Of a stretch of 64,000 bases of DNA, positions 6,858 to 50,970 are shown piece by piece (position 1 is the first letter of the stretch; every line of letters starts with the position of its first letter). The DNA lies in assembly GCA_002742935.1 (NCBI GenBank), contig PDON01000064.1, forward strand, positions 8,514 through 72,513, given 5' to 3'. Under the pieces are notes generated by a model. That model was not told the origin of the DNA and made no database searches. It saw only the letters and a program-made list of their open reading frames with translations. This DNA is from Candidatus Cloacimonadota bacterium. GTDB lineage: Bacteria; UBA4055. The position numbers were made by a program, and so were the translations under genes.

Positions 6858-7604
6858 CTACTTGGATCTTATATTATATCTCTTCTTCAATAATTCAATT
6901 TTTTTGGTATCACTAATTGGAATTCTGAGCTTTCTTATTTTTACAAAATCTTTACTTGTAGTTTCTAAACTTGGAATAAAACCTTTATGAAGGGTAATAA
7001 ATTCAATAAAATTTTTACCTGTCTTAATTTTTTTAATTTTAATCTTATTTCTCCAATCTGAAAAACTCAAGGGGAAAATCCATCTATTTACAAATATTAC
7101 TTCTCTGTAAAACTTTATTATGTATTTTTCTGAAAAAATATTGTTTACCAACTCATCTTTAATATATTTTCCCAAAATAATAAATAGAGGTAATAAAAAA
7201 GATAAAAATAGATTCAGTAAAACAAAAAATACAACAGGATCTTCCTTATAAATAATTATAAAAAGAAAGGAAAACGGAAGTAAAAATGAAATAAGGATTG
7301 CAATCTTTACAAAAAAAGTTTTTAGGTAATCTTTTTTTCTATTCTCCAACCAAACTTTTTTATCAATTTCCAGTTCTAAAATAAAATCATAGCTCTTTAT
7401 AAAATCCTGCTTTGACTTGATTAAGTAGTAAAATATTTTTAGAACTATTGCTGTGGAGATAAGATATGAAAAGATGAGAAAGGATTTATCTAAGGCAATA
7501 AGCTCTTCTGAAACCAATACTAACAAAGATCCCATAGAAATACACATAAAAGTAACTAAACTAAGAATTATAATTACTTGCTTAAAAGGATGTATTTCAT
7601 TCAT
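6858..7604 (-). CDS. Hypothetical polytopic membrane protein
   Basis: This is a 248-aa ORF with several hydrophobic segments and no recognisable motif. Confidence 0.35.
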   Translation of the reverse strand: MNEIHPFKQVIIILSLVTFMCISMGSLLVLVSEELIALDKSFLIFSYLISTAIVLKIFYYLIKSKQDFIKSYDFILELEIDKKVWLENRKKDYLKTFFVKIAILISFLLPFSFLFIIIYKEDPVVFFVLLNLFLSFLLPLFIILGKYIKDELVNNIFSEKYIIKFYREVIFVNRWIFPLSFSDWRNKIKIKKIKTGKNFIEFITLHKGFIPSLETTSKDFVKIRKLRIPISDTKKIELLKKRYNIRSK

Positions 7605-7723: not shown

Positions 7724-9535
7724 CTATTTAACAAGTATCATCTTCTTAGTTTCACTAAAACCATTTACGGAAAGTTTATAGAAATAAACACCGGAATTTA
7801 AGCTTTCAGCATTAAATTCAACGGAGTGGTAACCACTACCCATATCTCTATCTATGAGAGTATTAATAATCTCACCGTTTGAGTTGAAAATTTGGAGTTT
7901 AACGCTAGAATCATCTGAAATTTTGAAATTTATAGAAGTTTTAGGGTTAAATGGATTTGGATAATTTTGTGAAAGATAAAACCCTTTTACCATATTTAAC
8001 TCGTTAGTTGATATCCCGGAGCTAAAAGATATAGATACATTATCAATAGACCAGTTGTTTATTTGATAAGAGTCTCCTGAAAATTGGAAAGCTATATATA
8101 GAGAACTTGACCCAACATGATTGTTTGAAATTTCCATAAAAAATGACTCAGGACCAATATTTTGGGTGTTGTCAAAAGTATGAACAACTTCCCAATTCAC
8201 ACTATCTGTAGAGGTGACAATTTTACAATCATAACCAGGTCCATAATAGTTTATCATATGATCAAAAGATAAAAAAACAGAAGATTTTCCCGAAGTATCT
8301 AGAGGTTTAACTATAAGATATTGTTCTCCAACAGTAGCAGGATTCCAATAAAACTCCGCTTCAGGAGAAGAACCTCCCGCATTGCTTGAATATCCATGCC
8401 TCCAATTATTACCTTTAACTATCCAACCTTCAGGAGGGAAGTTTTCAAACCCTTCAAACACTAAAGTATTACCGGTAATAAAGGAAACCGTATTTGATAC
8501 AGCCTCTAATCCTGCTCCTATATTATTAACAGCGACAACAGTATAATTGTAGTTTGAAGATAGAGGTATAGTGTTGTCTGAAAATGAGGTAGCCATACCC
8601 TCTAAAGTAAACTCTTGTCCATCATTTCTGGTAATAGAGTAAGAGATTATAGAGTCATAAATATACAAACCACCATTAGCTCCAACTGTAGGGTTTTCCC
8701 AACTTAATTCTGCTATACCCTCATTGTTAACAAGTGTAAGGTTATTAACCATTCCCGGTACATCTTCACCAACATAAATTGATGTTTTTGTAGGTAATCC
8801 CTCACCTGCTTCATTAACACCAACAATCTTATAGGTGTACAAACCACTTTCAGGTATTGAACTATCCATATACTCTTTCTCTTCACCCATTTCAGGAGAA
8901 TCAAAACTTGTTATGAGGGTTTCGTTTCTATAAAGCTTAACAGCTGTAAGAGAAGTTAAAGGCTCTCCACTAAATGTAATACTAGGATTTTTCCACGAAA
9001 GATCAACATTAAAAGAGTTATTGTTATTTAATGTTGAAGTAAAATCTGTTGGAGCTCCCGGAGCACCACTATCAAACATTTCATTCATTGCAAGCTTTAA
9101 TTGAACATCAAAGTTTCTATCATTGTCATTATAGTAAACCTTATAGTCTCTGCCTATCACACCAAACAAAGGTACATATCCATTTGAAAAGCCACCTGAG
9201 TTGTCATACAGAGGCAAAGATATTGGATAGTTTTGATTTTCCCAATTTTCAGTACAAACCCAAAAAGATCTTCCTGCCCACTCGGTTCCGGAATTTTCTC
9301 CGTAAATTTCCGCCCATTTCTCCTGTAATATCGGCGCCGCCGAGGTACAGCCACCTCACCACGACTGACCCCAAAAAATCATTACTACTTTACCTTCATC
9401 AACCTGCTCATAGATTGATGTTTCTAAACCATCTTCTGTAGTGAAGCTGATGTTTTCACATACATCCCCTATAGCATATTCTGCTGGAAGTAGAGAAGCC
9501 AAAACCATTAAAAATAAAATTAAAGTTTTTTTCAT
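7724..9535 (-). CDS. Secreted TlpA-like thioredoxin-fold selenoprotein (UGGC motif) fused to Fn3/beta-sandwich domains and a T9SS C-terminal sorting domain; paralog 1. The ORF track shows only 7724..9217
   Basis: ATG at 9535 has an AAGGAGGG RBS and is followed by signal peptide MKKTLILFLMVLASLLPAEYA. The frame is open apart from a single in-frame TGA at 9358..9356 (codon 60) in the context VVMIFWGQSW-U-GGCTSAAPIL. A thioredoxin-like cis-Pro region (GYVPLFGVIGRDYKV) follows. The C-terminus (NYPNPFNP...VYFYKLSVNGF...MILVK) is a classic T9SS sorting tail. Confidence 0.55.
9318..9358 (-). promoter_or_regulatory. Candidate bacterial SECIS element directly 3' of the in-frame UGA of paralog 1
   Basis: UGA-GGU-GGC-UGU-ACC-UCG-GCG-GCG-CCG is an anomalously GC-rich codon choice in an AT-rich genome. 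GAGGU/ACCUC and CGGC-GGC-GCCG mini-hairpins can form. The same block is conserved at nucleotide level in paralog 2. Confidence 0.3.
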
Positions 9536-9667
9536 AAAAGTACCCTCCTTATGTAAGACATTTACGTATAAATTTATCTCTATAATAATATAACAAACAA
9601 AAAAAATAGCATGCTGGCAAGAGAAAAAAATATTTAAAACTAGTTAATATAGTCTCACATTTAAAAT

Positions 9668-9700
9668 AAAAAGCCTCCAATTTTGGAGGCTTTTTATTTT
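9668..9700. terminator. Terminator hairpin downstream of paralog 2, usable from either strand
   Basis: aaaagcctccaattttggaggctttt is flanked by A/T runs on both sides. Confidence 0.5.
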
Positions 9701-9719
9701 AAATATTTTTAAGAAAGTG

Positions 9720-11522
9720 TTACTTAACAAGTATCATTTTCTTAGTTTCACTAATACCGTTTACTGAAAGTTTATAGAAATAAACACCAGAATTTAAGCT
9801 TTCTGCATTAAATTCAACAGAGTGATAACCGCTACTCATATCCTTATCTACAAGAGTACTAACAAGCTCACCGTTTGAGTTGAAAACAGCTAAATTAACA
9901 GCTGATCTACTTGAAGTATTAAAGCTTATAGTAGTTGTAGGATTAAATGGATTTGGATAGTTTTGTGAAAGAGTGAACTCTTTTACACTATTGAATTCAT
10001 CAATTGAAGAGTTTAAAGCAATTGAAACATCATCAATATACCAATCATTTATTTGATAAGAGTCTCCTGAGAACATAAAAGCAAGATAAAATGTTTCAGA
10101 TCCAACATGATCATTTGAAATCTCTGTAGAGAATAGTTCCGGTCCTATATCTTGACCAGGGAAAGTATGAGCAACCTCCCAGTTTTCCATATCTGTAGAA
10201 GTAACTATTTTACACTCATAGCCAGGACCATAATAGTCAATCATATTGTTAAAAGCAATAGATATAGAACTTTTTCCTGATGTGTCTAAAGGCCTAGTTA
10301 TAAGGTATTGATCACCAACAGTTTGAGGAGACCATCCAAACTTAGCCTCAGGTGCTGTCCCACCGGCATAATTTGCATATGAAGCTCTCCAATTTTCACC
10401 TTGAACAGTCCACCCTTCAGGAGGAAAGTTTTCAAAGGTTTCAAGTAGTAATGTTGAGTTTGGAATAAAGCTAACTGTATTTGATACGGCCTCTAACCCG
10501 GCTCCTACATTATTATTAGCTACAACGGTGTAACTATAGTTTCCGGCTAGTGTTATAGAGTTGTCTGAAAAGGATGTAGTCATACCTTCTAAAGTAAACT
10601 CTTCACCATCATTTCTAGTAATAGTATAAGAGGTTATAGAGTTTTCTACATAGTATCCGTTATGTGCTCCAACCATTGGATTTGTCCAACTTAGATCAGC
10701 AACTCCATTATTATCAACTAAGTTAAGCCCGGTAACCATTCCCGGAGCATCTTCACCAATATAAACTGTTTTAGAGCAAGGAATTCCTTTGCCTGCTTCA
10801 TTAACACATTGAATTTTATAGATATGTAAACCCTCTTCAGAAATAGAGTTGTCCGTATAACTCATTTCTGCTCCTACCTCAGGAGATTCAAAGCTATTAA
10901 CTAACTCTCCATCCAAGTAAAGGTTAATATTTGATATTGAAGGCAAAGGAGCTTGACCTATTGTTTGAGAAGGGTTTGTCCAAGAAAGATCTACGCTAAG
11001 AGCTCCTTCTCCATCAGGAGTTACTGAAAAGTTACTTGGAGCTAATGGAGCTGCACTATCATACATTCCATTCATTGCAAGCTTCAATTGTTGCTCAAAA
11101 TTTGTAGAGTTAGAATTGTAGTAAACTTTGTAATCCTTACCTATAATTCCAAACATAGGAACATATCCGTTATCAAAGCCACCTATATTATTGTATAAAG
11201 GTACCGATATAGGATAGTTTTGATTTTCCCAATTTTCAGTACAAACCCAAAAAGATCTTCCTGCCCACTCAGTCCCTGAGTTGGTACCGTAAGTATTTTC
11301 CCACATCTGTTGTAAAACCGGCGCCGCCGATACACAACCACCTCAACCACTGCTTCCCCAGAAGATTAGAACGACCTTCTCTTGATCAACCTGCTCATAG
11401 ATTGATGTTTCTAAACCATCCTCTGTAGTAAAGCTAATGTTTTCGCATACATCTCCTATAGCATATTCTGCTGAAAGGAGAGAAGCCAAAACCATTAAAA
11501 ATGAAATTAAAACTTTCTTCAT
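9720..11522 (-). CDS. Secreted TlpA-like thioredoxin-fold selenoprotein (UGGC motif) with Fn3/beta-sandwich domains and a T9SS C-terminal domain; paralog 2. The ORF track shows only 9720..11306
   Basis: ATG at 11522 has an AGGAG RBS and is followed by signal peptide MKKVLISFLMVLASLLSAEYA. A single in-frame TGA at 11345..11343 is again codon 60, in the context VVLIFWGSSG-U-GGCVSAAPVL. The same T9SS tail is present. The protein is about 70% identical to paralog 1. Confidence 0.55.
11306..11345 (-). promoter_or_regulatory. Candidate SECIS element 3' of the UGA of paralog 2
   Basis: UGA-GGU-GGU-UGU-GUA-UCG-GCG-GCG-CCG conserves the same rare GC-rich codons (tcg gcg gcg ccg) as paralog 1. Confidence 0.3.
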
Positions 11523-11687
11523 AGAAGTCTCCTAAAAATTATACCAACAAAAACTAAGTATGGAATGAAACAATAAAAACTATACATTTGCAAGTGAAAA
11601 ACTAAAAAAAATAACTTTAAATTTGAAAACATTAACATTATATTTAAGTAGATTTTATTTTGTTTTTTTTAAGAAACTGGTGGTGTA

Positions 11688-13781
11688 ATGGTGAAATACT
11701 GGAAAATTGTAGTGAAGATATCTCTCTTCATGGCTTTGGTTGGCTGTGCTTTTGAGAATCAACTTTTTTTTGGAGTTGAAAAAGCGGAACTCAAAATACC
11801 TTTTGGTAAAAAGAGATATGATTTTGTAAGAATGAATGATGATGCAGACTTAGAAGAGATGGAGATTGGAGGTAATCTAAAAATTGAGACAATACATGAT
11901 TCAGCTGTTTTAGCAATTTACAAGATAAAAATAGATGGAGAGTCTAATGAAAAACAGTTTCGATTTAATGAGACTGTTCTACCATTTACTGAAGTTCCTG
12001 CTATAACTAAATCTTCCAGTGTTAGCATATACAGTAGCGAAAATCCAGAACTAAAGTGGGCAAAGGTAAATAACGGATCTCTTTACATCAGTATTGAAAA
12101 TCAGTTCGGAGATTTATCATTTTCAAAGATAAGATTTTCGTTGAAAAATAACGAAAGCTCTTTTGATCCAGACCTAAATGTTTCATCATTTCTTATTTTA
12201 AGGGATTCGATATCAGATCTTATGCCGGGTGAAACAAAAAACTATTTTAAGGATCTAAAAAATGAATGGATTACTGATAATATGGAACTTGAAGTAGCCT
12301 ATATCAACAACTCTCTTTCGGCAGATCAAAATGTTAATGGTGTAGATTCTTCCCAATTTATCCGATTTAACTATAGTATTACAAATTGTTCTTTTGACAG
12401 TAGTAAGGTTCTGTTTAGTAATAAAACCGTAGAGCATGATACTTCATACGCATTTAATATCAAAAATATAAATCCTAGATTTATTGAAACAAAAGATGCT
12501 GAAATTAGAGTTATAGTAGATAATGAAAGTCCATTTTTAATTGGGATAGAACCTCAAATGGATTCTCTTTACAGTCTAAACACTAATTCTATTTATGAGT
12601 TTGATAGCATAATGGTGGGAGCACACGAAAAAAGTAGATCAAAATTTAATATTGAAAATACAAAGCTTCTTTTTAATTCAGAAACAAAAGAGACAGGTTT
12701 TAAATATAAAATAAACCTAAAATCTCCCGATAATAGTGAATATTTAAGATTTTCTCAGTCCGATAGTACTTTTCTTAAGCTTATAATAACAGGGATATCG
12801 GAAGGTTTTGAGAATGAAAGGGATTTTGGAGTTAGCAAAATAGATGGCTCTTTTGTCTCAAAAGATATTGAACTTGAAGAATCAAAGTCTGAGATTGATG
12901 TAGATTGGAGCGAGTTTGAGGGCTTTCATGTAGATTCCATAGGTGTGAACCTTTCTTTAGATATTTTGAGAGAAGGTTTTACAATGGATAAAATTGAGAT
13001 AGATACTCTTTATTTAAGAGGTCTGAAAAAAAGTGGGGAGCTTAGCGATCTTTACAATATTGAGATTCCAACTTTAGAGAATTTTAGTGATACAACTATT
13101 AGGGTAACGGGTTTTGAGGATCTTATAAACTTTAAACCAGACTCTATATTCTATTCGGGAAAAGCTGTTTTTGACTACAATGGAACAATAAATGACAGTG
13201 ATAAAATTAAGCTAAATATTGAGTTTGGGGTTCCTGTTCAAGGAGTAGTTGAGGATACAATAAAAAGATCTGGTGATGTTGAAACAATTGAGGCTTTTAA
13301 CAAAGATGATGGTAATATCCACTATAAAATTGATGATCTTATACTGGATGCTTTTCTAAATTATCAGCTAACAAATAAAGATTCCGATAATGTTGAATTC
13401 TGGGCTGAAATTGAGGTTCTGTTTTCTGAAACAGCAACGGAAACATTTGACAGGGGAAAAGATTCATTAACAGGTGATATTAAAACTCTATTTAAAGCTA
13501 GAGTGAGGAACGACAATATTAATGAGCATGGTTATTATCTTTCAGACCCTTCAATAAATCCTCAATTTATAGGTGATGGATATTTTGTTGACAATGAAGG
13601 TATTCATGTAAATGGAGAACTTGCAAATAAAATTATAAACAAAGATACATATGTTCAGCCTGTGTTTAGGATATTTCCAACTAATCCCGGGAAGTATATA
13701 AAGATGAGTATTGATGATTATATTGATGTACAGCTTAAAGCTAATGCGAAAGTTACAATTAAGTACGAACATAATAATTAA
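11688..13781 (+). CDS. Large lipoprotein, hypothetical
   Basis: A lipobox-like LVGC follows an N-terminal hydrophobic stretch. The 697-aa protein is Asn/Ser/Asp-rich with no known motif. It is divergent from the selenoprotein pair. Confidence 0.45.
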   Translation: MVKYWKIVVKISLFMALVGCAFENQLFFGVEKAELKIPFGKKRYDFVRMNDDADLEEMEIGGNLKIETIHDSAVLAIYKIKIDGESNEKQFRFNETVLPFTEVPAITKSSSVSIYSSENPELKWAKVNNGSLYISIENQFGDLSFSKIRFSLKNNESSFDPDLNVSSFLILRDSISDLMPGETKNYFKDLKNEWITDNMELEVAYINNSLSADQNVNGVDSSQFIRFNYSITNCSFDSSKVLFSNKTVEHDTSYAFNIKNINPRFIETKDAEIRVIVDNESPFLIGIEPQMDSLYSLNTNSIYEFDSIMVGAHEKSRSKFNIENTKLLFNSETKETGFKYKINLKSPDNSEYLRFSQSDSTFLKLIITGISEGFENERDFGVSKIDGSFVSKDIELEESKSEIDVDWSEFEGFHVDSIGVNLSLDILREGFTMDKIEIDTLYLRGLKKSGELSDLYNIEIPTLENFSDTTIRVTGFEDLINFKPDSIFYSGKAVFDYNGTINDSDKIKLNIEFGVPVQGVVEDTIKRSGDVETIEAFNKDDGNIHYKIDDLILDAFLNYQLTNKDSDNVEFWAEIEVLFSETATETFDRGKDSLTGDIKTLFKARVRNDNINEHGYYLSDPSINPQFIGDGYFVDNEGIHVNGELANKIINKDTYVQPVFRIFPTNPGKYIKMSIDDYIDVQLKANAKVTIKYEHNN

Positions 13782-13808: not shown

Positions 13809-15095
13809 ATGCTGAGATATATAATTTTAACTCTTATATTTTTCACGGCTATTGAAGCACAACAATTCAGTATAAAAAACTTTTCACTATCATCATCTGA
13901 TATGATAAATATTCAGAGTGATGAAGTAAACGGGCTAAATCCTGCACTACCAAATTTCAACCAAAACGGGAACTATTATATAAGCTTTATACCTGTAGCG
14001 TTAAACAACAGCTTTTTAATGGATTATAAGGAAAAACAGTTTGATAATGCAGAGCTAATGCTTACAAAAAAAACTATTAATGATATGATAAACATGGCAG
14101 ATTACGGGTGGAAATGGAGAGAAAAATATAGAGCTTCTATTTTTTCCATGGGTTTCTACAATCAATCAATTTCTATTTCAACAAACTCTATGGCTACATT
14201 AAACCTCCCTGTAGATCTTTTAAAAGTTCTAAGAGGTTACGATTATAACAAGGAGTATGGTTTCAATGATTTTGGTTTAGAAATTTTGCACTATATTTCA
14301 TTTGAATATTCATACTCATTTGATCTTTCAACACTATTTGATCCTCAAAAAATAGGATTGAACAGAGCCTCTTTGGGAATAGGGGCAAGAGTTTTATACT
14401 CTCCTAGATACTATTCAGCAGAAAGTTTGTCTGGGTCGTTAACAATAAATGATGAAAACTCTTCCAATCCCGGAACTATAAATTTAGATACGCAGGTAGA
14501 AATTTTTAATTCCTTTGGAGGTATTGGTAAGGGGTTTGATTTTGGTTTTGCAGGAGAGGTAAATGAAAGCTTTAAAATAGGAGCATCACTTACGAATCTC
14601 TTTGCATCCATTTATTTCAATACTGACAATAAAACAAGAAGGCATGGTCTAATTGTAAACGATTATCTCGACTATACAGAGTTTGATAGTGACTCCATAA
14701 TAACATCAACAGAAATAGATGAGAAAGTAAAAGAGGATAAAAGAACTGTATCTTTGCCGGTTAAGTTTTCTCTGGCTTTTTCATATGACTACATAACAGA
14801 AAATAATTGTTTTACAATTACATCATCATACATTCAGGGTTTTGAAGATAGATTGGATATATCCTCTATACCACAAATTAATATAGGGGTAGAGTACTCA
14901 TATATTGATCATGATTGGATTAAACTTAGACAGGGTTTTAGTTTTGGAGGGAATGAGAGAACTGCATTTGCTTCTGGATTAAATTTTAATTTTTCATACT
15001 ATGAAATTGATTTAGCAGTAGCTTATCAACTGTTTGGTGAAAGTTCAGAGTTTAGAACAACAGGTTTATCCCTTTCTCAAAAATTTAAATTTTAA
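13809..15095 (+). CDS. Outer-membrane beta-barrel protein; possibly a T9SS-associated PorV/PorP-like barrel, which is speculative
   Basis: It has a signal peptide, alternating amphipathic beta-strand character and a C-terminal ...KFKF (terminal Phe), typical of OMPs. It is co-oriented and adjacent to the lipoprotein gene. Confidence 0.4.
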   Translation: MLRYIILTLIFFTAIEAQQFSIKNFSLSSSDMINIQSDEVNGLNPALPNFNQNGNYYISFIPVALNNSFLMDYKEKQFDNAELMLTKKTINDMINMADYGWKWREKYRASIFSMGFYNQSISISTNSMATLNLPVDLLKVLRGYDYNKEYGFNDFGLEILHYISFEYSYSFDLSTLFDPQKIGLNRASLGIGARVLYSPRYYSAESLSGSLTINDENSSNPGTINLDTQVEIFNSFGGIGKGFDFGFAGEVNESFKIGASLTNLFASIYFNTDNKTRRHGLIVNDYLDYTEFDSDSIITSTEIDEKVKEDKRTVSLPVKFSLAFSYDYITENNCFTITSSYIQGFEDRLDISSIPQINIGVEYSYIDHDWIKLRQGFSFGGNERTAFASGLNFNFSYYEIDLAVAYQLFGESSEFRTTGLSLSQKFKF

Positions 15096-15453: not shown

Positions 15454-16785
15454 ATGGAGACTTTTATGGGTTACACTTTTAAAGGAGGATATCACCCACC
15501 TGATGGTAAGAGTCTTTCTGAACACTGTAAAATTGAACAGATTCCTCAACCGGATACTGTTGCTATTCATCTTTCCCAACATATAGGAGCACCTTCAAAG
15601 CCTATTGTTTCCATAGGTGAGGAGGTAAAAGTTGGGCAACCTCTAAGTGAAGCAGCAGGATTTGTATCAATTCCTGTTCATTCTTCGGTTTCCGGAAAGG
15701 TTAAGGCTATAGCAAAAATAGCTGATTCAAATGGAGTAAAACATGATGCTGTCATAATAGAAAATGATAAAGAGGATACTCTTTTTGAGGGTGTTGGTGT
15801 CAAGAGAGATTACTCAGATTTTACACCTGATGATATGAGAAAAATAATTGGAGCTTCAGGAGTTGCGGGAATGGGTGGAGCAAGATTCCCTACTCATGTA
15901 AAACTTTCAGTTCCCAAAGATAAAAAGATAACTCATGTTATTCTAAATGGTGTTGAGTGTGAACCATATCTAACAGCAGATGACAGACTTATGCAGGAAA
16001 CTCCTGAAACTATTGTTGAAGGTCTTCTCATAATGATGAAAATATGTAATGCTGAAAATGGTATTATAGGTATTGAGCTTAATAAACCAAAAGCTATTGA
16101 AACAATGGAAAAAGCTGTAGCTAACATACCAAATGTTAAGATAATAGGTTGTAAAGTGAAATATCCTCAAGGAGGGGAGAAGCAACTTATAGTAGCTGCT
16201 CTTGGTAAAGAGGTTCCTTCAGGAGGATTACCTATGGATGTTGGAGCCGTTGTTTCCAATGTTGGTACTGCACACTGTATATATGAAGCCATTGCTCTTG
16301 GAAAGCCTTTGTATGAAAGAGTTGTAACTGTAACCGGAGAAGGTGTTAATTCTCCTAAAAATATACTTGCTAAAATTGGAACTCCTGTAAAAAATCTTGT
16401 TGATTATGCAGGTGGTCTCAAGGAGGATATTCACAAAGTTATTAATGGTGGGCCTATGATGGGAGCTTCTATGTCAGATCTTCTATCTCCTGTTCATAAA
16501 GGAACCTCCGGTGTTTTATGTATTACAAAAGCTGATGGTGAACTTCTGGAAGAGCAACCATGTTTGAGTTGTGGTAAATGTGTAACTGTTTGTCCTATGA
16601 GACTTGTTCCTTGTAGTATGGCAACTTTGGTTGAGTTTGGAAAATATGAAGAGGCTCAAAAACTTGGAATAATGGATTGTATAAGTTGTGGAACTTGTGC
16701 TTATGTATGTCCATCTAAGAGAAATCTTGTTCACTATTTTATTCGTGGCAAGGGTGAAGTAATGAAAATGAAAACAACTAGGTAG
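15454..16785 (+). CDS. rnfC: Rnf complex subunit C (NADH-binding, 2x[4Fe-4S])
   Basis: It contains CLSCGKCVTVCP and CISCGTCAYVCP ferredoxin motifs. It sits in the rnfCDGEAB order. Confidence 0.85.
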   Translation: METFMGYTFKGGYHPPDGKSLSEHCKIEQIPQPDTVAIHLSQHIGAPSKPIVSIGEEVKVGQPLSEAAGFVSIPVHSSVSGKVKAIAKIADSNGVKHDAVIIENDKEDTLFEGVGVKRDYSDFTPDDMRKIIGASGVAGMGGARFPTHVKLSVPKDKKITHVILNGVECEPYLTADDRLMQETPETIVEGLLIMMKICNAENGIIGIELNKPKAIETMEKAVANIPNVKIIGCKVKYPQGGEKQLIVAALGKEVPSGGLPMDVGAVVSNVGTAHCIYEAIALGKPLYERVVTVTGEGVNSPKNILAKIGTPVKNLVDYAGGLKEDIHKVINGGPMMGASMSDLLSPVHKGTSGVLCITKADGELLEEQPCLSCGKCVTVCPMRLVPCSMATLVEFGKYEEAQKLGIMDCISCGTCAYVCPSKRNLVHYFIRGKGEVMKMKTTR

Positions 16786-16793
16786 AGTTATAA

Positions 16794-17843
16794 ATGGATA
16801 AAAAACTTGTAGTATCGGCAAATCCCCATTTGAGGAATACCGATTCGATAGCAAAGGTTATGCATACTGTAAATATTGCTCTTTTGCCTGCTATATTTAT
16901 GTCTGCGTACTATTTTGGATTTAGAGCTATTCTCGTAATTCTCGTAAGTGTTCTGTCTGCGGTAGTTACAGAAGCTTTAATCCAAAAATTTAGAAAGAAG
17001 CCCATTACTGTTTCAGACGGATCTGCAATTTTGACAGGTATTTTATTAGCTTTTAATGTTCCTCCTCAAATACCACTTTGGATAGTAGCGTTAGGTTCAT
17101 TCTTTGCCATTGGAATAGTTAAACAAGCTTTTGGTGGAGTTGGATTTAATATTTTAAACCCTGCTTTGGCAGGAAGAGCTTTTCTTTTGGCTTCTTGGCC
17201 TGTTCAAATGACAACAACTTGGTCTTCTGCAGGTGGTAGATTTGCTTCCAAAGCAAGTGAGAAGGCTATGGAAATTGGAGGAGCTTTTGATGCTCTTACT
17301 CAAGCTACACCACTAAATGTAATGAAATCTGTAAACAAAATTATAAGTGAATCACCTGAAGGTTCTGCTAAGGCTGCTCAAGCTGTTGAGATAATGAGTG
17401 GATTAAAAGATTCATATTTAGATCTTTTGACAGGTAATGTAGCAGGGTGTATTGGTGAAACATCTGCTATAGCACTTTTAATAGGAGCTTCAATACTTTT
17501 TTACAAAGGATACATAACTTGGAGAATTCCGACAGCTTATATTTTGACCGTGATTATATTAGCACTTATAATTCCGGGACAAGATCCAATATTACATCTT
17601 CTTTCCGGAGGTTTAATTCTTGGTGCATTCTTTATGGCAACCGATATGGTTACTTCACCTGTTACTCCAAGTGGAATGATATATTTTGGTATAGGTTGTG
17701 GTATCTTCACAGTTCTCATAAGAGTTTGGGGTGGATATCCTGAAGGTGTTTCATACAGTATTTTACTTATGAATGTTGTATCTCCATTAATTGACAGATA
17801 TACAACTCCGAAAAAATTTGGTTTCATAAAAAAATCTAAATAG
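16794..17843 (+). CDS. rnfD: Rnf complex subunit D
   Basis: This is a polytopic membrane protein of the NqrB/RnfD family and is second gene of the rnf cluster. Confidence 0.85.
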   Translation: MDKKLVVSANPHLRNTDSIAKVMHTVNIALLPAIFMSAYYFGFRAILVILVSVLSAVVTEALIQKFRKKPITVSDGSAILTGILLAFNVPPQIPLWIVALGSFFAIGIVKQAFGGVGFNILNPALAGRAFLLASWPVQMTTTWSSAGGRFASKASEKAMEIGGAFDALTQATPLNVMKSVNKIISESPEGSAKAAQAVEIMSGLKDSYLDLLTGNVAGCIGETSAIALLIGASILFYKGYITWRIPTAYILTVIILALIIPGQDPILHLLSGGLILGAFFMATDMVTSPVTPSGMIYFGIGCGIFTVLIRVWGGYPEGVSYSILLMNVVSPLIDRYTTPKKFGFIKKSK

Positions 17844-17854
17844 AAGGTAAGAAG

Positions 17855-18433
17855 ATGGGAAATATATTTAAAATGTCCGCAACTCTTTTTTTGGTAGCCG
17901 GATTAGCCTCAGGACTTCTGGCTTTCTACAGCTCAATGACTAGCCCTGTAATTAAGGAGCTTTCCTTAAAGAAGGAGACTGAAGCAAGAACCTATGTTGT
18001 TCCAAAGTCGGTTAAGGAGTTTGAAGAGATAAAAAAGGATAATATTACATACTACAAAGCCAAAGATGATAAAGGTTCTCTAATAGGATATGTTTTCTTA
18101 GCTAAAGGACCCGGCTTTTCCGGTGATGTAGAAACTATGGTTGGGGTTGACCCTAATTTTAAAATCTTTGGTGTTAAAGTAATTAAGCAAACTGAAACTC
18201 CGGGTCTTGGAGCTGAAACTCAGGTAGTAAAATATGGAGATACAAAACCTTTCTTTGAATCATGGTTTGAGGGTGTCAACTCTATAAATGTAGTGGTTGA
18301 GAAGGATAATGCAAATTCAAAAGATAAGGTTCAATCCATAACAGGAGCCACAATTACTACAAGAGCTGTATGTAATGCTATAAACAAATACTCTAAACTT
18401 GTTAAAGAAGATCTTCAAGAAGGGGGTATGTAA
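17855..18433 (+). CDS. rnfG: Rnf complex subunit G (FMN-binding)
   Basis: It has the SITGATITTRAV FMN-attachment motif. Confidence 0.8.
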   Translation: MGNIFKMSATLFLVAGLASGLLAFYSSMTSPVIKELSLKKETEARTYVVPKSVKEFEEIKKDNITYYKAKDDKGSLIGYVFLAKGPGFSGDVETMVGVDPNFKIFGVKVIKQTETPGLGAETQVVKYGDTKPFFESWFEGVNSINVVVEKDNANSKDKVQSITGATITTRAVCNAINKYSKLVKEDLQEGGM

Positions 18434-19050
18434 TGACAATGTTTGAAAATTTAACAAAAGGGTTTATAAAAGAGAATCCCGTTTTGGTTCTTGCTCTTGG
18501 TCTTTGTCCATCTCTAGCCGTAACAACCTCTATTGAGAACGGTTTAGGTATGGGTATGGCATCAACAGCAGTACTTATGGGATCAAGTTCTATAGTATCC
18601 CTACTAAAAAAGTTTATTCCAAGTAGTATAAGGATTCCTATATATATTGTAATTATTGCTACCTTTGTAACAATAATAGATTTAACTCTACAGGCTTATA
18701 TTCCGGCTCTTTCGGAATCATTAGGACTTTTTATACCTCTTATTGTGGTAAATTGTATAATTCTTGGTAGAGCTGAAGCTTTTGCCAGTAAAAACTCTCT
18801 ATTAGATTCTCTTATAGATGCTCTTGGTATGGGTCTTGGTTTCACTTTAGCTCTTGTGCTAATTAGTTCTTTAAGGGAGTTTGCAGGAACAGGAGCTATT
18901 TACGGGTATCCTATATTTCAGATGATGGGGTTAGATTTTAAAGGCTCTATTATGATGATTCTTCCTCCGGGTGGTTTTTTGGCCATGGGATTAATCTTAG
19001 GATTTATGCAGTGGAATAGAATGAGAAAAAAAATTAAAGGAGGTAAATAA
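18433..19050 (+). CDS. rnfE: Rnf complex subunit E
   Basis: This is an NqrD/RnfE-family membrane protein. Confidence 0.8.
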   Translation: MTMFENLTKGFIKENPVLVLALGLCPSLAVTTSIENGLGMGMASTAVLMGSSSIVSLLKKFIPSSIRIPIYIVIIATFVTIIDLTLQAYIPALSESLGLFIPLIVVNCIILGRAEAFASKNSLLDSLIDALGMGLGFTLALVLISSLREFAGTGAIYGYPIFQMMGLDFKGSIMMILPPGGFLAMGLILGFMQWNRMRKKIKGGK

Positions 19051-19655
19051 TGAATTTTTCACATATAATGTTTTTATCTATCTCCTCTATATTTATCTCA
19101 AACTTTGTTCTTATGCAGTTTTTGGGAATATGCCCCTTTATTGGTGTATCAAAAAAGATAGATTCTGCTCTAGGTATGGGTATGGCGGTAATCTTTGTAA
19201 TGACATTGGCATCAACAGTTACCTCTCTCGTACAGAACTATCTGTTAGTTCCCTACAATATGGAGTATCTTCAAACAATATCCTTTATTTTGGTAATTGC
19301 ATCTTTAGTACAATTTACTGAAATGTTTATGAAGAGACATATGCCTGCTCTTTACCAACAACTGGGTATTTTCCTTCCACTAATTACAACAAATTGTGCT
19401 GTTCTTGGTGTAGCTATTCTAAACACAAAATTTCTATGGGATGATGGAACTCCTTTAAGCTTTATAGAGTCTGTTTGGAATGGAGCAATGGCAGGAGTTG
19501 GTTTTACCTTAGCTCTTGTTCTAATGGCAGGTGTTAGGGAGAAGCTTGAGACAGCAGATGTTCCTGAAAGTTTAAAAGGTTTACCAATAACCTACATATC
19601 AGCCTCTCTTATTGCGGTTGCTTTCTTAGGTTTTAGTGGTATGAAAATAATGTAA
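19050..19655 (+). CDS. rnfA: Rnf complex subunit A
   Basis: This is an NqrE/RnfA-family membrane protein. Confidence 0.8.
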   Translation: MNFSHIMFLSISSIFISNFVLMQFLGICPFIGVSKKIDSALGMGMAVIFVMTLASTVTSLVQNYLLVPYNMEYLQTISFILVIASLVQFTEMFMKRHMPALYQQLGIFLPLITTNCAVLGVAILNTKFLWDDGTPLSFIESVWNGAMAGVGFTLALVLMAGVREKLETADVPESLKGLPITYISASLIAVAFLGFSGMKIM

Positions 19656-19674
19656 AGAAAGGTGGAGATAGATT

Positions 19675-20640
19675 ATGAATACAATAATAACTGCTACTCT
19701 TTCTGTTGGTGGTATTGGAGCTTTGTTAGGAGGGGTATTAGCTTATGCTTCTAAAGTTTTCCATGTTGAAGTTGATCCAAAGATAACACAGATTGATGAG
19801 GTTTTACCTCAAGCAAATTGTGGTGCTTGTGGATTTCCCGGTTGTGCGGCATATGCTGAAGCTGTTGCAGGTTTAAAAAGTGATATAAATCTTTGTAGTC
19901 CGGGTGGACAAGAGGTTGTAGATAAAATTGCTTCAATTATGGGAATGGCAGCTACTGTTGCCGAGCCGGTTGTAGCTTATGTTGCTTGTAAGGGAAGCAA
20001 AGAGAACGCAAAAGATAGATTTGAGTATTATGGAGTTAAAAACTGTAGTTCTGCTGTTTATATATCCGGTGGTCATAAGCAGTGTGAGTATGGCTGTTTA
20101 GGATTTGGAGAGTGTGTTGAGGCATGTAATTTTGGTGCTATGCACATGGATGAGGAGACAGGTTTACCTGTTGTTGATGATGAGAAATGTACTGGTTGTA
20201 GGGCTTGTGTTGATGCTTGTCCTAAAGGTATAATGAAGCTTATACCTAAAAATAGAACTGTTTATATAGGATGTAACTCACAAGCTAAAGGTAAAGAGGT
20301 GATGGATGCTTGTAAGGTTGGTTGTATAGGTTGTAAAATCTGTTCTACGCCTAAGGTTACTCCGGGTAAATCTATTAAGATGAACGGTGATCTTCCTGTC
20401 ATAGATTTTAAGATAGAGGAGGATTATACTGCAGCTAAGTTTAAATGTCCTAAAGGTTGTTTTGTTGATAAAAATGATAGATCTAAATCAGAAGAACAAT
20501 TAGCTTCTGAAAAGAGCGAGTTCAAAAAGATGGAAGCTGAAAAAGCTGCCGCTGCAAAGAAAGCTGCACTTGAAAAAGCTGCTAAACTTAAGGCTGAAAA
20601 GGAAGCTAAAGCTGCTAAAGAAGCTGAAGAACAGAAATAG
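19675..20640 (+). CDS. rnfB: Rnf complex subunit B (polyferredoxin) with an Ala/Lys/Glu-rich C-terminal tail
   Basis: It has an N-terminal TM helix and multiple Cys clusters (CGACGFPGCAAY, CTGCRACVDACP). The tail reads ...KKMEAEKAAAAKKAALEKAAKLKAEKEAKAAKEAEEQK. Confidence 0.8.
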   Translation: MNTIITATLSVGGIGALLGGVLAYASKVFHVEVDPKITQIDEVLPQANCGACGFPGCAAYAEAVAGLKSDINLCSPGGQEVVDKIASIMGMAATVAEPVVAYVACKGSKENAKDRFEYYGVKNCSSAVYISGGHKQCEYGCLGFGECVEACNFGAMHMDEETGLPVVDDEKCTGCRACVDACPKGIMKLIPKNRTVYIGCNSQAKGKEVMDACKVGCIGCKICSTPKVTPGKSIKMNGDLPVIDFKIEEDYTAAKFKCPKGCFVDKNDRSKSEEQLASEKSEFKKMEAEKAAAAKKAALEKAAKLKAEKEAKAAKEAEEQK

Positions 20641-37106: not shown

Positions 37107-38123
37107 GTGAGAGAAACAGTACTTAGCGGAGCACAATTAGGTAACGAATCAGAAATAGAGAGATCTCTTAGACCAAGATTTCTTAAAGACTTTACAGGTC
37201 AAAAGAAGATAAGAGAAAATCTTAAAGTTTTTATTGAATCTGCTAAAATGAGAAATGAAAGTTTAGATCATACTCTTTTACACGGACCTCCGGGACTTGG
37301 AAAAACAACTTTGGCAAATATCATAGCTTCTGAAATGGGAGCTGATATAAAGATAACTTCAGGGCCGGTTTTGGAGAAGGCCGCAGATCTTGCAGGACTT
37401 TTAACAAATCTTCAAGATGGGGATATTTTGTTTATTGATGAGATACACAGACTTTCGCCCGTTATAGAGGAGTATCTTTATCCTGCTATGGAGGACTATA
37501 CCATAGATATTATGCTTTCTACCGGACCTTCTGCAACTAGTGTTCAACTCAATCTTCCAAAATTTACTCTTGTAGGTGCAACAACGAGAGCAGGAAATTT
37601 AACATCACCAATGAGAGCGAGGTTTGGCGTTAATTTGAGAATGAACTACTATACACCTGAAGAGCTTGATTTTATTGTTAAAAGATCTGCCTATATTCTA
37701 GATATGGATATAGATGATGAAGCATCTTTTGAGATAGCAAGAAGATCTAGAGGTACTCCAAGAATTGCAAATAGAGTGCTTAGAAGAATAAGAGATTTTG
37801 CGATGGTGAAAACAGGTGGTAAAATTGATCTGCCCATAACTATTTTTGGAATGGAGGCCTTAGAGATTGATAATAAAGGTCTGGATAGTATGGATAAAAG
37901 TATTATTTCTGCCATTATTGAAAAGTTTAAGGGTGGTCCTGTTGGTATTAAGAATATTGCTGTTGCTGTTGGTGAGGAAGCTGAAACTCTTGAAGAGGTT
38001 TATGAACCTTATTTGATTCAAGAAGGATTTATTCAAAGAACCCAAAGAGGAAGAATGGTTACAGATCTTGCCTATAAACATTTTGGTTATGAGAATGAAA
38101 GAGGACAACTTAGTTTGTTATGA
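37107..38123 (+). CDS. ruvB: Holliday junction branch-migration ATPase RuvB
   Basis: It has the Walker A motif [17 protein letters not shown] and other RuvB-family motifs. Confidence 0.9.
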
Positions 38124-39161: not shown

Positions 39162-40289
39162 ATGATTTGTAAGGAATGTAATACTCTAAATGCCAAGGAA
39201 GCAAAGTTTTGTGAAACCTGTGGTCGTAAAATAAAAATAAAAAAGCTAAAGTTTAAGGTTGAGAAAAAAGATGATAGAGGTATTGTTAAAAATTTACTTC
39301 TGAATAGGCATACAATAAAATATGTTGTCTCATCTGCTCTTATCTTATTTATTGTATTTTTTATTGTTATAAATATTGAGACTATCAATACAATAATTCC
39401 TGAAGCTAAAAATAAGTTTTCTTTATCTGAAAATTCAATATTTAGTGGGTTGATACCACCTAAAAAACAAGAGAAAAAGAAAGTAGAGGTTGAAGAGGTA
39501 GAGGAAAAAGTAGAAATAGAAAAACCAAAACCTAAAAAAATGGTAAAGAGAAAAAAATCAAAATATAATAGCTATACAGGTATGGTTAATAGAGATGATA
39601 AGGTAATCTATGGAGATGATGATAAAAGAATGGTATTGGTTCCTGGTCAAACAGTTACAATTGGTGATGATAACGATCCATTAGCGAACCCTAAACACAA
39701 AATTAAAGTTGACCCTTTCTATATGGATGTTTTTGAAGTTACCAACATCGAATTTAAAAGATTCCTTAGAGAAACAAATTATAAATCAATTGAAAGCTAT
39801 CCCCATTTTCATAATCCAAGATTCAATAAAGATAAACAACCAATGATAAATGTTGAATATAAAGATGCTAAAGCTTATGCAGATTGGATAGGAAAAAGGT
39901 TGCCAACGGAAGAGGAGTGGGAGTGTGCCGCAAAGGGTGGTAAAGAGTACAGCTACCCTACAGGAGAGAATGTAAATAGAAGATTAGCAAATTATGGTAA
40001 AAAGATTAAAAATGGATCAACAACTATCATTGGTTCTTATGATCCAAACCCCTACGGAATATATGATCTTGCAGGTAATGTATCAGAAATTGTTTCGGGG
40101 GTTCTTTCTCCATACAGTGGTAACAATACAGCAAGTATAACATGGGGAAAGAGAACCAGTAGAGGGGGATCTTGGTTAAGTCAAAAAAGGGATTTAAAGA
40201 ATTATATAAGAAGACCACTTGAAGTTGAATCAGAAGATATTGGAACAAGGGGTTTTAGATGTGTTATAAGTAAATCAGCTCTAAACTAG
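39162..40289 (+). CDS. Zinc-ribbon + TM + FGE-sulfatase (SUMF1/EgtB/PvdO-like) domain protein, paralog 1
   Basis: It has the zinc ribbon CKECN...CETCG and a TM segment. The C-terminal FGE-domain motifs are DVFEVTNIEFKRF, RLPTEEEWECAAKGG, GGSWLS and RGFRCV. Confidence 0.65.
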   Translation: MICKECNTLNAKEAKFCETCGRKIKIKKLKFKVEKKDDRGIVKNLLLNRHTIKYVVSSALILFIVFFIVINIETINTIIPEAKNKFSLSENSIFSGLIPPKKQEKKKVEVEEVEEKVEIEKPKPKKMVKRKKSKYNSYTGMVNRDDKVIYGDDDKRMVLVPGQTVTIGDDNDPLANPKHKIKVDPFYMDVFEVTNIEFKRFLRETNYKSIESYPHFHNPRFNKDKQPMINVEYKDAKAYADWIGKRLPTEEEWECAAKGGKEYSYPTGENVNRRLANYGKKIKNGSTTIIGSYDPNPYGIYDLAGNVSEIVSGVLSPYSGNNTASITWGKRTSRGGSWLSQKRDLKNYIRRPLEVESEDIGTRGFRCVISKSALN

Positions 40290-40320
40290 ATAAACCGTTA
40301 ATATATTAGGGAGTATAATA

Positions 40321-41397
40321 ATGAGTAATATTTGTAAAAGGTGTGGATCTTTTAATGAGATTGGAGCAAAGATATGCTCTGAATGTAACGCAGAAATAAA
40401 GACAGGAAAGATCAAATCCAATTCCTCTGTAAAAAAGGACACAATAATAAATGGAGAAAGAAAATTAGGGTTTAAGATTAATCTTCGTAAATATGCTAGT
40501 GGTTATATTTTCATAATAATACTTATTCTTTCCACAATTTTTATCTTTACTGTAAATAGTGATAATTCCCTAAATATTACCGTTGCGAGTATTGTTGACA
40601 GTTTATCTACAAAAACTGTAAAGGATACAATAAATACTGCTGAGAAAGATAAAAAGGTTAAGAAAAAGAAAAAAAAGAAGATAGGTCCTAATTATGTGAA
40701 GAGGAGTATTAGAGATCTTCCAACATATAAAAGTTCCAAAGATGATATGCTTATGGTTTTGGTTCCGGCAGGAGAGTTTGAAATGGGAAGTAATAATGAA
40801 ACCGATTTTGAATCTCCGGTACATAAGGTTACTACCAATAGTTTCTATATTGATGTTCACGAGGTGACAAATAGGCAATATAGAACATTTTTGGAAGCTA
40901 CAGGTTATAAAGCTCCAAGTTTTATAGGTAGACAAAGATTTAATGGCCCCAACCAACCGGTTGTAGGTGTTAGTTATGAGGATGCAAAAGCTTATGCAGA
41001 ATGGGTTGGTAAGAGGTTGCCAACAGAAGAGGAGTGGGAAAAAGCTTCAAGGGGAGGATTAAAAAATATAAAGTATCCGTTCAGCAAGGTTCCTGACCCC
41101 AAAAAATACTGTTACAATTTAAATCCTAATGAAGGAAACCCTATTGATGTTAAGTCTCTAAAGTATAACGACTATAAAATATACGACACTTCAGGTAATG
41201 TATATGAATGGACATCTTCTAAACCTAAATATTATGAAACCCAAAAAAATATGGTTGAAGGGGTTCAATATTTCAGAATTATCCGTGGAGGAAGCTGGAA
41301 GAGTACACCTGAAGATATAACAGTTTCAAAGAGAAAGTTTACAAAAACAAAAAACAAAAGAGATGATCTTGGTTTTAGATGTGTTATGGATAATTAG
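40321..41397 (+). CDS. Zinc-ribbon + TM + FGE-sulfatase domain protein, paralog 2
   Basis: It has the same architecture (CKRCGS...CSECN; RLPTEEEWEKASRGG; RGGSWKS; GFRCV), a K-rich linker, and sits in tandem with paralog 1. Confidence 0.65.
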   Translation: MSNICKRCGSFNEIGAKICSECNAEIKTGKIKSNSSVKKDTIINGERKLGFKINLRKYASGYIFIIILILSTIFIFTVNSDNSLNITVASIVDSLSTKTVKDTINTAEKDKKVKKKKKKKIGPNYVKRSIRDLPTYKSSKDDMLMVLVPAGEFEMGSNNETDFESPVHKVTTNSFYIDVHEVTNRQYRTFLEATGYKAPSFIGRQRFNGPNQPVVGVSYEDAKAYAEWVGKRLPTEEEWEKASRGGLKNIKYPFSKVPDPKKYCYNLNPNEGNPIDVKSLKYNDYKIYDTSGNVYEWTSSKPKYYETQKNMVEGVQYFRIIRGGSWKSTPEDITVSKRKFTKTKNKRDDLGFRCVMDN

Positions 41398-47767: not shown

Positions 47768-47843
47768 ACAATAGAGCTTAAAAGATCTCTTTTAGATTGA
47801 AGTAAGTTGGAAGTAATCAATAATATAATTTTGGATTATGTAG

Positions 47844-49022: not shown

Positions 49023-49689
49023 GGAAAGTAACCTCTATACATTGGTTTTTGCCAGTTTGATTACTATTTTCTGTGCTGTTCTTCTTTCGTTTACCTCATT
49101 TTCTTTGAAAGAAAAGCAAGAGAAAAATCTTGAGGTGGATTCAAAAAAGAATATATTAAAAGCCGTTACTCTTTTAAAAGATGGAAAAGAGTATTCTCAA
49201 GAGGAGATATTGGATCTCTACAAAAACTCTATTGAAGAGAAGTCTGTTGATGATAATGGTAACTTCACAACCAAAGGTAATAAGGTTTATATTGCCAAAA
49301 AAGATGGTAAGATTATCTCATATTGCATACCTATTGAGGGTAAAGGGTTGTGGTCAACTATATATGGTTACATGGCTCTTGAAAAAGATTGTAATAGAGT
49401 TAAGGGTATAACATTTTATAAGCATGGTGAAACTCCGGGACTTGGAGGAGAGATATCTCAGCCATGGTTTATGAAAAACTACATTGGTAAAGAGATCTTT
49501 AATAGTTCGGGAGAGTTAGCTTCTATAACAATTCTTAAAGGTAAGGTAAATCTTCAAAACAGTGAATCTTCACACCAAGTTGATGGTATAAGTGGAGCAA
49601 CCCTTACATGTAAGGGTGTAAATAAATTTATTAAGGAAGATCTTACTACATACAAACCATTCTTTAACAAAATAAAAGGGGGTATGTAA
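49012..49689 (+). CDS. nqrC: Na+-NQR subunit C (FMN-binding)
   Basis: It has the [15 protein letters not shown]-attachment motif. Confidence 0.8.
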
Positions 49690-50297: not shown

Positions 50298-50328
50298 AGA
50301 ACTATAAATTAAAGATTAGGAATAGATT

Positions 50329-50943: not shown

Positions 50944-50970
50944 TTTAAAGGTAAATTAGGAGTAGATAAT

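Follow-up and report, generated by a model that had tools for sequence, protein, structure and literature searches.

A predicted family of thioredoxin-fold selenoproteins with type IX sorting domains, truncated at an in-frame UGA in the annotation of a Candidatus Cloacimonadota contig

Introduction

Several families of thioredoxin-fold proteins carry selenocysteine (U) in place of the first cysteine of the CxxC active site, giving a UxxC motif. One published list names a Prx-like thiol:disulfide oxidoreductase, a thiol:disulfide interchange protein, and thiol-disulfide isomerase-like, redoxin-family, DsbA-like and DsbG-like selenoproteins (PMC9312934). In the genes of these known proteins the UGA is followed by a hairpin within the coding region, and the proteins are routinely truncated; database truncation of selenoproteins is a recognised problem (bioRxiv 10.1101/2022.07.06.499078). 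Here we describe two neighbouring paralogous genes, A and B, that show the same three traits. They lie in a stretch of 64,000 nucleotides (hereafter the window, numbered from its first letter) from a Candidatus Cloacimonadota bacterium (GTDB lineage Bacteria; UBA4055; assembly GCA_002742935.1, contig PDON01000064.1, positions 8,514 to 72,513 of the forward strand). Our verdict is that both genes use canonical selenocysteine recoding and belong to a so far undescribed family of thioredoxin-fold selenoproteins sorted by the type IX secretion system (T9SS). In what follows the amino acid is written out or given as U, and Sec by itself denotes the export pathway.

With the known UxxC selenoproteins the window family also shares its weak best Pfam matches, AhpC-TSA and Redoxin. 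It is set apart by description: the domain is only the N-terminal module of exported proteins of 500-1000 residues, the part between it and the T9SS tail varies (FN3, choice-of-anchor-J, MAM or LamG), no cysteine homologue was found, and no Pfam or NCBIfam model reaches its cut-off for the domain. The best matches among solved structures are TlpA/ResA/DsbE/tryparedoxin-like proteins (3hcz, 4nmu, 4fyu), which have in common with the window proteins a beta-strand running into W/F-x-x-CxxC and a helix, signal-peptide-dependent export and a cis-Pro loop, the last being a prediction for the window proteins. TlpA/ResA/DsbE-like proteins are small, single-domain, periplasmic or membrane-anchored, have a cysteine nucleophile and are recharged by CcdA/DsbD, whereas the window proteins have a predicted selenocysteine nucleophile in a U-G-G-C motif and are addressed to the T9SS. 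T9SS type A cargo, choice-of-anchor J proteins included, resembles them in its Sec signal peptide, its modular Ig/FN3-like middle and its C-terminal sorting domain ending ...KKMxLxK.

At the RNA level the closest described element is the selenocysteine insertion sequence (SECIS) of the E. coli fdhF type, likewise a coding-sequence hairpin just 3' of the UGA with an apical loop that begins with G. The window hairpin differs in its much shorter conserved stem (4-5 bp), its 3-nt GGC loop and the absence of a bulged U. In E. coli fdhF, 11 nt separate the UGA from the minimal SelB-binding helix, close to the 12-13 nt found here. What is new here is the family, together with its architecture and predicted destination; the recoding itself works in an ordinary way. 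Among publications in which both terms co-occur, judged by title and abstract, we found no link between selenocysteine and type IX secretion. Nor did we find described a UxxC N-terminal module on T9SS cargo, the apparent lack of a cysteine form, or the adjacency to selC-selA-selB reported below.

Results and discussion

Both genes start upstream of an in-frame UGA

A sequence-only reading of the window had proposed that the open reading frames (ORFs) listed for the two paralogs are N-terminally truncated. Both ORFs are present as listed, at 7724..9217 (minus strand, 497 aa, starting with TTG) and 9720..11306 (minus strand, 528 aa, starting with ATG). Translation of the same frame upstream of these starts reveals one in-frame TGA per gene, at codon 60 in A and in B alike. 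The full gene of paralog A occupies 7724..9535 (minus strand; 603 codons plus stop, ATG 9535..9533) and that of paralog B occupies 9720..11522 (minus strand; 600 codons plus stop, ATG 11522..11520). The TGA codons (9358..9356 in A, 11345..11343 in B) open the active-site motif U-G-G-C, at 9347..9358 and 11334..11345 on the minus strand, with W-U-G-G-C as the local context in A and G-U-G-G-C in B. The 59 codons 5' of the TGA encode MKK(T/V)LI(L/S)FLMVLASLL(P/S)AEYAIGDVCENISFTTEDGLETSIYEQVD..K VV.IFWG(QSW/SSG), and the codons 3' of it encode GGC(T/V)SAAP(I/V)LQ... in both genes. Across the active site, A reads VVMIFWGQSW-U-GGC-TSAAPILQ, with ..FWGQSW-U-GGCTSAAPILQEK as the predicted spanning peptide.

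The annotated models lack 106 residues in A and 72 in B. The false start of A is a TTG at codon 107 (9215..9217, minus strand), where both the 497-aa ORF and CR982_07000 begin; that of B is an internal ATG at codon 73 (11304..11306, minus strand), where both the 528-aa ORF and CR982_07010 begin. The GenBank products are these truncated forms (CR982_07000, 497 aa; CR982_07010, 528 aa; contig PDWJ01000350.1 of the metagenome-assembled genome (MAG) GCA_002754885.1), and gene callers also report an ORF of 59 aa, as a gene of its own, ahead of each truncated gene. The sequence-only reading had placed the called starts 46-72 codons after the UGA. This holds for A, where 46 codons intervene before the TTG, but not for B, where 12 codons precede the ATG and 72 is the number of N-terminal codons lost. 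It had also spoken of an upstream exon-like segment; the segment does belong to the gene, but the wording is loose, as the reading frame is continuous.

Overall, A and B are about 65% identical (7724-9660 versus 9720-11660, minus strand). Their nucleotide identity rises to 87-92% in two stretches, one covering the signal peptide with the first strands (~9546-9456) and the other the T9SS tail (~7883-7750), and this high identity at both ends could reflect gene conversion or stronger constraint.

The annotation might of course be right as it stands. The UGA would then end a secreted peptide of 59 residues, and a separate gene would start at TTG 9217 or ATG 11306. GenBank and other gene callers yield just these products, and TGA is able to act as a stop in this genome, as at the end of ruvB. 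Several lines of evidence argue otherwise. First, Shine-Dalgarno (SD) sequences are found before the upstream ATGs only: AAGGAGG at 9544..9550 (minus strand), 8 nt 5' of the ATG of A, and AGGAG (context TAGGAGA) at 11529..11533 (minus strand), 5' of the ATG of B. No comparable site lies 5' of the TTG of A or the internal ATG of B, and the called starts are scattered among homologues. For reference, SD-like 4-mers precede 18 of the 43 long window ORFs and 12% of random positions.

Second, the extended N-termini look like signal peptides of 18 residues, each composed of MKK, a 13-residue hydrophobic core and A at position -1 as judged by a heuristic. The predicted signal peptide of A is MKKTLILFLMVLASLLPA (9482..9535, minus strand), probably cleaved before EYAIGD, and that of B is MKKVLISFLMVLASLLSA (11469..11522, minus strand); relatives have their predicted cleavage region, ..FA|AY.. 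or ..FA|VW.., at the equivalent place. The best 11-residue Kyte-Doolittle window within the first 35 residues scores 3.0 in A and 2.65 in B for the extended forms, and 1.1 and -0.04 for the truncated ones. By this measure the 497- and 528-aa models do lack a signal peptide, as had been claimed, and the extension supplies a signal-peptide-like core.

Third, the supposed spacer is under purifying selection in frame. A third copy, from another MAG (L001, JAFGVU010000128.1), has an equal layout, is annotated as 59 aa plus 446 aa, and aligns with A and B without gaps over the first 160 codons. The ratio of nonsynonymous to synonymous divergence (dN/dS, Nei-Gojobori), compared among these three copies, is 0.12-0.27 overall on both sides of the UGA and in the same frame, for the comparisons with unsaturated dS; codons 1-59 of the A-C comparison, with a proportion of synonymous differences (pS) above 0.75, gave no computable ratio. 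Values run from 0.12 to 0.20 in codons 20-59 and from 0.17 to 0.22 in codons 61-106, a stretch that is non-coding in the annotation of paralog A.

Fourth, A and B each carry a T9SS type A sorting domain at the C-terminus, at residues 525-600 of A (7736..7963, minus strand) and 522-597 of B (9732..9959, minus strand). Pfam Por_Secre_tail scores 42 and 45.7 bits for the two paralogs (cut-off 27) and NCBIfam TIGR04183, scanned on paralog A, scores 42.4 bits (cut-off 23), which bears out the T9SS assignment of the sequence-only reading above curated cut-offs. Type IX cargo first crosses the inner membrane via Sec. Since such cargo needs Sec export, the truncated models are internally inconsistent: the downstream product would have a T9SS domain but no route across the inner membrane. 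One more distant homologue, P0004 (contig L002), matches the FN3/choice-of-anchor-J/T9SS part, lacks the N-terminal domain and has its own signal peptide directly before the FN3 region, an arrangement which shows a signal peptide to be required by the cargo and the N-terminal domain to be a module that can be separated from it. The P0004 gene (L002:137-4899) lies just downstream of a fur-feoA-feoB cluster. No T9SS machinery (PorK/L/M/N, SprA, PorU/V) was seen among the window genes scanned.

On the strength of the in-frame selection, the SD sites, the hydrophobic N-termini and the T9SS domain, we conclude that the parts upstream and downstream of the UGA are translated together. A split at the UGA would in addition fall between the beta1 strand and the alpha1 helix of the thioredoxin fold. 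We consider it highly improbable that the annotation is right, and A and B are very probably single genes for selenoproteins. The observation made from the letters is confirmed with one number wrong, the true genes include the upstream segment as it had proposed, and its interpretation is supported.

The N-terminal domain has a predicted thioredoxin fold with U at the nucleophile

We assign residues 19 to ~160 of A (9056..9481, minus strand) to a thioredoxin-fold domain, based on a family profile compared with the PDB, on hhalign and on Pfam profile matches. Across 26 aligned family members, in which U was entered as C, the invariant positions are F37, G39, U43, C46, A50, P51, W57, W81, P105 and G111. 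The family profile gave 200 matches at E<=1 when searched against all PDB sequences, and all 60 of the matches listed are thioredoxin-fold proteins. The best are the thiol-disulfide isomerase 3hcz (1e-6), the 145-residue thioredoxin 4fyu (8e-6) and ResA 4nmu (8e-4), and in all three alignments U falls on the first cysteine of CxxC. The alignment with 4fyu covers 112 positions and includes a Pro-containing loop, 'GYVP' versus 'GIPM', in which the invariant Pro of 'GYVP(L/F)F' aligns with 'AGIPMLIVI' of 4fyu. From this correspondence the 'GYVP' Pro would form the cis-Pro loop and is predicted to adopt the cis conformation. With E. coli TrxA, hhalign returns a probability of 84% and places FWGQSW-U-GGC on FWAEW-C-GPC.

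AhpC-TSA and Redoxin are each matched by 18 of the 26 members (E<=0.01), and the weak Pfam and NCBIfam matches are all centred on the U-G-G-C region; NCBIfam holds no model for this N-terminal domain. The domain appears to be a divergent module of the TlpA/ResA/tryparedoxin type and, since no curated family cut-off is passed, only membership of the superfamily is claimed. The truncated models start downstream of U, which aligns with the first cysteine of CxxC, and they do lack the thioredoxin active site, as the sequence-only reading had stated. Between head and tail lie two FN3-like domains and a choice-of-anchor-J-like domain (residues 359-502 of A, 8030..8461, minus strand; 25.9 bits, below the curated cut-off of 30). 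A homologue, P0005, is named choice-of-anchor J by NCBI.

A GC-rich hairpin follows the UGA in the window and across the family

In both genes the RNA after the UGA reads GGU GG(C/U) UGU nnn UCG GCG GCG CCG and can form a SECIS-like stem-loop. The stem-loop of A lies at 9323..9350 (minus strand; lower stem CUGUA/UACAG, core hairpin 9343..9331, UCGGC-GGC-GCCGA) and that of B at 11310..11337 (minus strand; lower stem UUGU/ACAA, core hairpin 11330..11318, UCGGC-GGC-GCCGG). The core hairpin consists of a 4-5 bp stem, CGGC/GCCG, and a GGC triloop, and begins 12-13 nt 3' of the UGA. Its codons are rare in the window, where GC is 32.3%: TCG accounts for 3.2% of Ser, GCG for 3.5% of Ala and CCG for 10% of Pro codons, and the string TCG GCG GCG CCG has a probability of ~4e-6 per site given the peptide. 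The only two G/C runs of at least 10 nt in the 64-kb window are the sites just 3' of these two TGAs. Synonymous divergence among A, B and L001 is lower in codons 61-72 than elsewhere, and in the lower stem the U-A to C-G difference between A and B is compensatory, at two synonymous sites. A longer two-stem SECIS model was tried for the whole family and rejected, as it fits the window subfamily only.

Relatives were retrieved in two ways. A DNA pattern combining UGA and hairpin, TGAGGTGGNTGYNNNNNGGCGGCGCCG, gave 38 matches in 37 metagenome contigs. Five of these, in contigs of 60-71% GC and without protein similarity, are chance matches; the other 33 lie in contigs of 32-42% GC and all have one layout, with a Met 58-64 codons 5' of the UGA in most of them, a signal peptide, the motif ..SWTDN.G..HSI.EL...GKA...FWG..., then U-GGC-..AAP and a long in-frame ORF. 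Complete copies have ORFs of 330-1002 codons, and most end in a T9SS-type tail. Protein homology, which is independent of the hairpin, added 8 further copies, for a total of ~40 related copies. All of them combine a signal peptide, FWG/FFG-xxx-U-x-x-C-xxAAP and a long in-frame ORF.

At the protein level, the post-UGA part, compared exhaustively by HMMER with 1.84 billion representative proteins, matched 22 of them. Every family match starts at its own residue 1-8 and at query position 5-47. The homologues therefore do not share a start at the downstream Met, the outcome named in advance as one that would speak against the extended genes; their starts are scattered, as false starts would be. 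We inspected the DNA of six of these matches. In five of them an ORF of 58-71 aa lies immediately 5' and an in-frame TGA is present; P0078, the sixth, runs into the end of its contig, on which an adjacent copy has an equal layout. The active-site motifs in the inspected loci are UPGC, UVSC, UGSC, UPTC, UGGC, UGTC and UNTC. A profile search of a 5.8-billion-protein set returned only fragments that end in ...FWGGTG or start past the UGA. The first 169 residues, with U changed to C, matched nothing in that set, because every relative is split at the UGA. Neither the 1.84 billion representatives nor the 5.8-billion word-index set yielded a homologue that spans the site, and hence no cysteine-containing form was found. 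The protein patterns WVCTENW and Y[AS]IGDVCE, searched in genome and metagenome contigs, found the L001 contig only or nothing. Every database entry found for the family is truncated alike, and the family is previously unannotated.

Within this collection the core helix is 91% paired across 37 distinct junctions, 29 of which were retrieved by the pattern that fixes the hairpin core. Two core pairs, 23-33 and 26-30, show double changes in which CG becomes UA or AU, and the third, synonymous base of a Pro codon takes part in one of these. Members found by protein homology show the stems AGGC/GCCU (L041b), UGGC/GCCA (L042, L046), CGGU/ACCG (L043), CGUCG/CGACG (L044) and CGGC-AGC-GCCG (L045), and in these members the hairpin is preserved although the third base of the Pro codon, a synonymous site, varies.

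The same collection bears on the possibility that both genes are pseudogenes inactivated by a nonsense mutation, to which an in-frame stop within an otherwise intact frame would give some colour. A, B and the ~40 copies, drawn from many metagenomes, have TGA at one and the same codon, which occupies the catalytic position throughout and has the hairpin after it in every case; dN/dS is well below 1; and no intact cysteine version was found in the databases. We regard inactivation as scarcely credible.

Side by side with these results, tandem pairs of family genes were also seen in L025, L041 and L046. Some members have C-termini that, judged by eye, are not of the T9SS type (L008, L031, L035; L045, P0070, P0072, P0076); they include dockerin-like ends, ...DVDGNG.VEAYDCSLILQYIVG..., in some and ...FYIVAKN....SIIVK in others. 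The selenocysteine-thioredoxin head thus seems to be combined with more than one type of C-terminal address.

Relatives adjoin selenocysteine genes, and TGA recoding is site-specific

In five related metagenome contigs (L004, L028, L032, L037, L038) ARAGORN calls a tRNA-SeC (anticodon tca) directly 3' of the family gene, on the same strand and, by coordinates, ~30-50 nt past its stop. The genes after the tRNA were examined in two of these contigs. In L037 the tRNA-SeC is followed by selA (PF03841, 433 bits) and then by selB (GTP_EFTU, SelB beta-barrel and SelB winged helix); in L028, selA (450 bits) comes next. At L037:3363-8800 (minus strand) the selenoprotein gene heads the cluster of selenocysteine machinery. 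An unusual tRNA(Sec) of Cloacimonetes type is already on record (PMC5330540).

TGA is a very rare stop, ending 1 of the 43 long window ORFs (ruvB) and 5 of 71 in related low-GC loci (L004-L046). TAG and TAA are equally common in the window (21 each), which is unusual for a genome of 32% GC. The ruvB gene (37107..38123) stops at TGA 12 residues past a complete RuvB_C domain and overlaps queA by ATGA. None of the other long ORFs of the window contains an in-frame TGA. The rarity of TGA stops led us to consider genome-wide reassignment of the codon, which was rejected on these two grounds; the recoding is site-specific and does not reflect a changed code.

A remaining alternative is that this UGA is read as something other than selenocysteine, either as Cys by a tRNA(Sec)-like tRNA or as Trp or Gly through near-cognate or reassigned decoding. 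Insertion of selenocysteine here is deduced from sequence, TGA is as rare a stop as just described, and some bacteria reportedly possess tRNA(Sec)-derived tRNAs that carry Cys. Reassigned decoding is at odds with the lack of in-frame TGA in other window genes. The adjoining tRNA is called tRNA-SeC in all five relatives, and it is followed by selA (L037, L028), which encodes the enzyme that makes selenocysteinyl-tRNA, and by selB (L037). The position is that of the nucleophilic Cys of CxxC, the classic site for selenocysteine, and Gly or Trp at the nucleophile would destroy the active site. We judge such decoding to be very unlikely.

Several observations weigh against the overall interpretation. 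No selA, selB, selC or selD is present among the genes scanned in the 64-kb window, which contains no tRNA of any kind. The hairpin falls far short of the E. coli fdhF SECIS in size, its lower stem is 65% paired across the family, that is, not conserved family-wide, and Rfam, bacterial SECIS models included, gave no match at gathering or permissive thresholds. Folding energy is not distinctive (z -1.1 and -1.4 for the two sites), and 17% and 3.7% of synonymous recodings fold equally well. The ~10 junctions retrieved independently of the pattern are the sole unbiased evidence for the hairpin. At the protein level AhpC-TSA scores 21.1 and 14.9 bits (cut-off 26) and Redoxin 15.8 and 15.4 bits (cut-off 26.6), and the TrxA and ResA models of NCBIfam are far below cut-off for the window protein. 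We also know of no reductant for a thioredoxin-fold protein outside the outer membrane. Given that the folding tests are not significant, the RNA argument rests on codon rarity, conservation in the family and compensatory changes.

A proposed route to the cell surface and its implications

In the mechanism that we propose, translation would start at the SD-preceded ATG (9535 or 11522) and yield a nascent chain headed by a signal peptide of the Sec type. SelB and selenocysteinyl-tRNA(Sec), recruited by the GC-rich hairpin, would decode the UGA at codon 60 as selenocysteine. Translation would then proceed through the thioredoxin-fold domain, the two FN3-like domains, the choice-of-anchor-J-like domain and the T9SS sorting domain. 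After passing the inner membrane through Sec and the outer one through the type IX system, the mature protein would either stay attached to the cell surface or be released from it. In this location its U-G-G-C centre may act as a selenol/thiol-disulfide oxidoreductase, in which the selenolate would attack a disulfide or a similar electrophile and be resolved by Cys63, a scheme suggested by the fold only. At the surface, a UxxC head would sit on a stalk that differs from paralog to paralog and is of FN3, choice-of-anchor-J, MAM or LamG type. We infer selenocysteine insertion in this organism, surface location and a redox substrate.

As a tentative proposal, and one that we think could well prove wrong, these proteins may be obligately selenocysteine-dependent, T9SS-exported surface thioredoxin-fold oxidoreductases of Cloacimonadota-like anaerobes. 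If true, they would be the first extracellular, outer-surface bacterial selenoenzymes, and UxxC heads on adhesin-like stalks would act on protein disulfides, on polysulfide or sulfur, or on selenium or metal species. The family, where its gene lies directly upstream of selC-selA-selB, would then be a principal client of the selenocysteine machinery in those lineages. Taken together, the fusion to a T9SS cargo architecture, the lack of a detectable cysteine counterpart and, in some genomes, the adjacency to selC-selA-selB suggest that uncultured anaerobes carry out selenium-dependent redox reactions on or outside their outer membrane.

There is also a practical side to the finding. The two GenBank proteins and every relative found are without signal peptide and catalytic centre, and as a result function prediction, localisation prediction and proteomic searches fail for the family. 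Dozens of annotations would be corrected by a family model that places U in the active site. In addition, the family offers a compact SECIS variant, sampled in many copies, with a stem of 4-5 bp, a GGC triloop and a spacer of 12-13 nt, for a phylum whose tRNA(Sec) has already been reported as unusual.

Genomic surroundings of the two genes

Between B and A lies a palindromic, terminator-like hairpin (9659..9704, either strand; a perfect 20 bp stem, AAAAAGCCTCCAA TTTTGGAGGCTTTTT), which implies that A and B are separate transcription units. The weak Rfam leader and sRNA matches of the region all fall on this hairpin. Just downstream of paralog A, a very hydrophobic protein of 248 aa without a family match is encoded at 6858-7604 (minus strand). 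On the other side of the pair, a divergently transcribed gene for a 697-aa protein, likewise without a family match, occupies 11688-13781 (plus strand), and a DUF5723 protein is encoded at 13809-15095 (plus strand).

The genes of the window are housekeeping genes, with Rnf, Nqr, RelA/SpoT, BioB/A/F, RuvB, QueA, LigA, GroEL and NrdD among them. Two tandem FGE-sulfatase (formylglycine-generating-enzyme-like) genes at 39162-41397 (plus strand) each encode an N-terminal extension of ~150 residues that has no family match. Two related membrane redox pumps are also encoded in the window. An Rnf-type cluster lies at 15454-20640 (plus strand), with RnfC and RnfD confirmed by Pfam and the remainder taken from gene-call annotation, and an Nqr-type cluster lies at 46442-52209 (plus strand), with NqrA, an NqrB-like protein and an NqrF-like Fer2/FAD/NAD protein.

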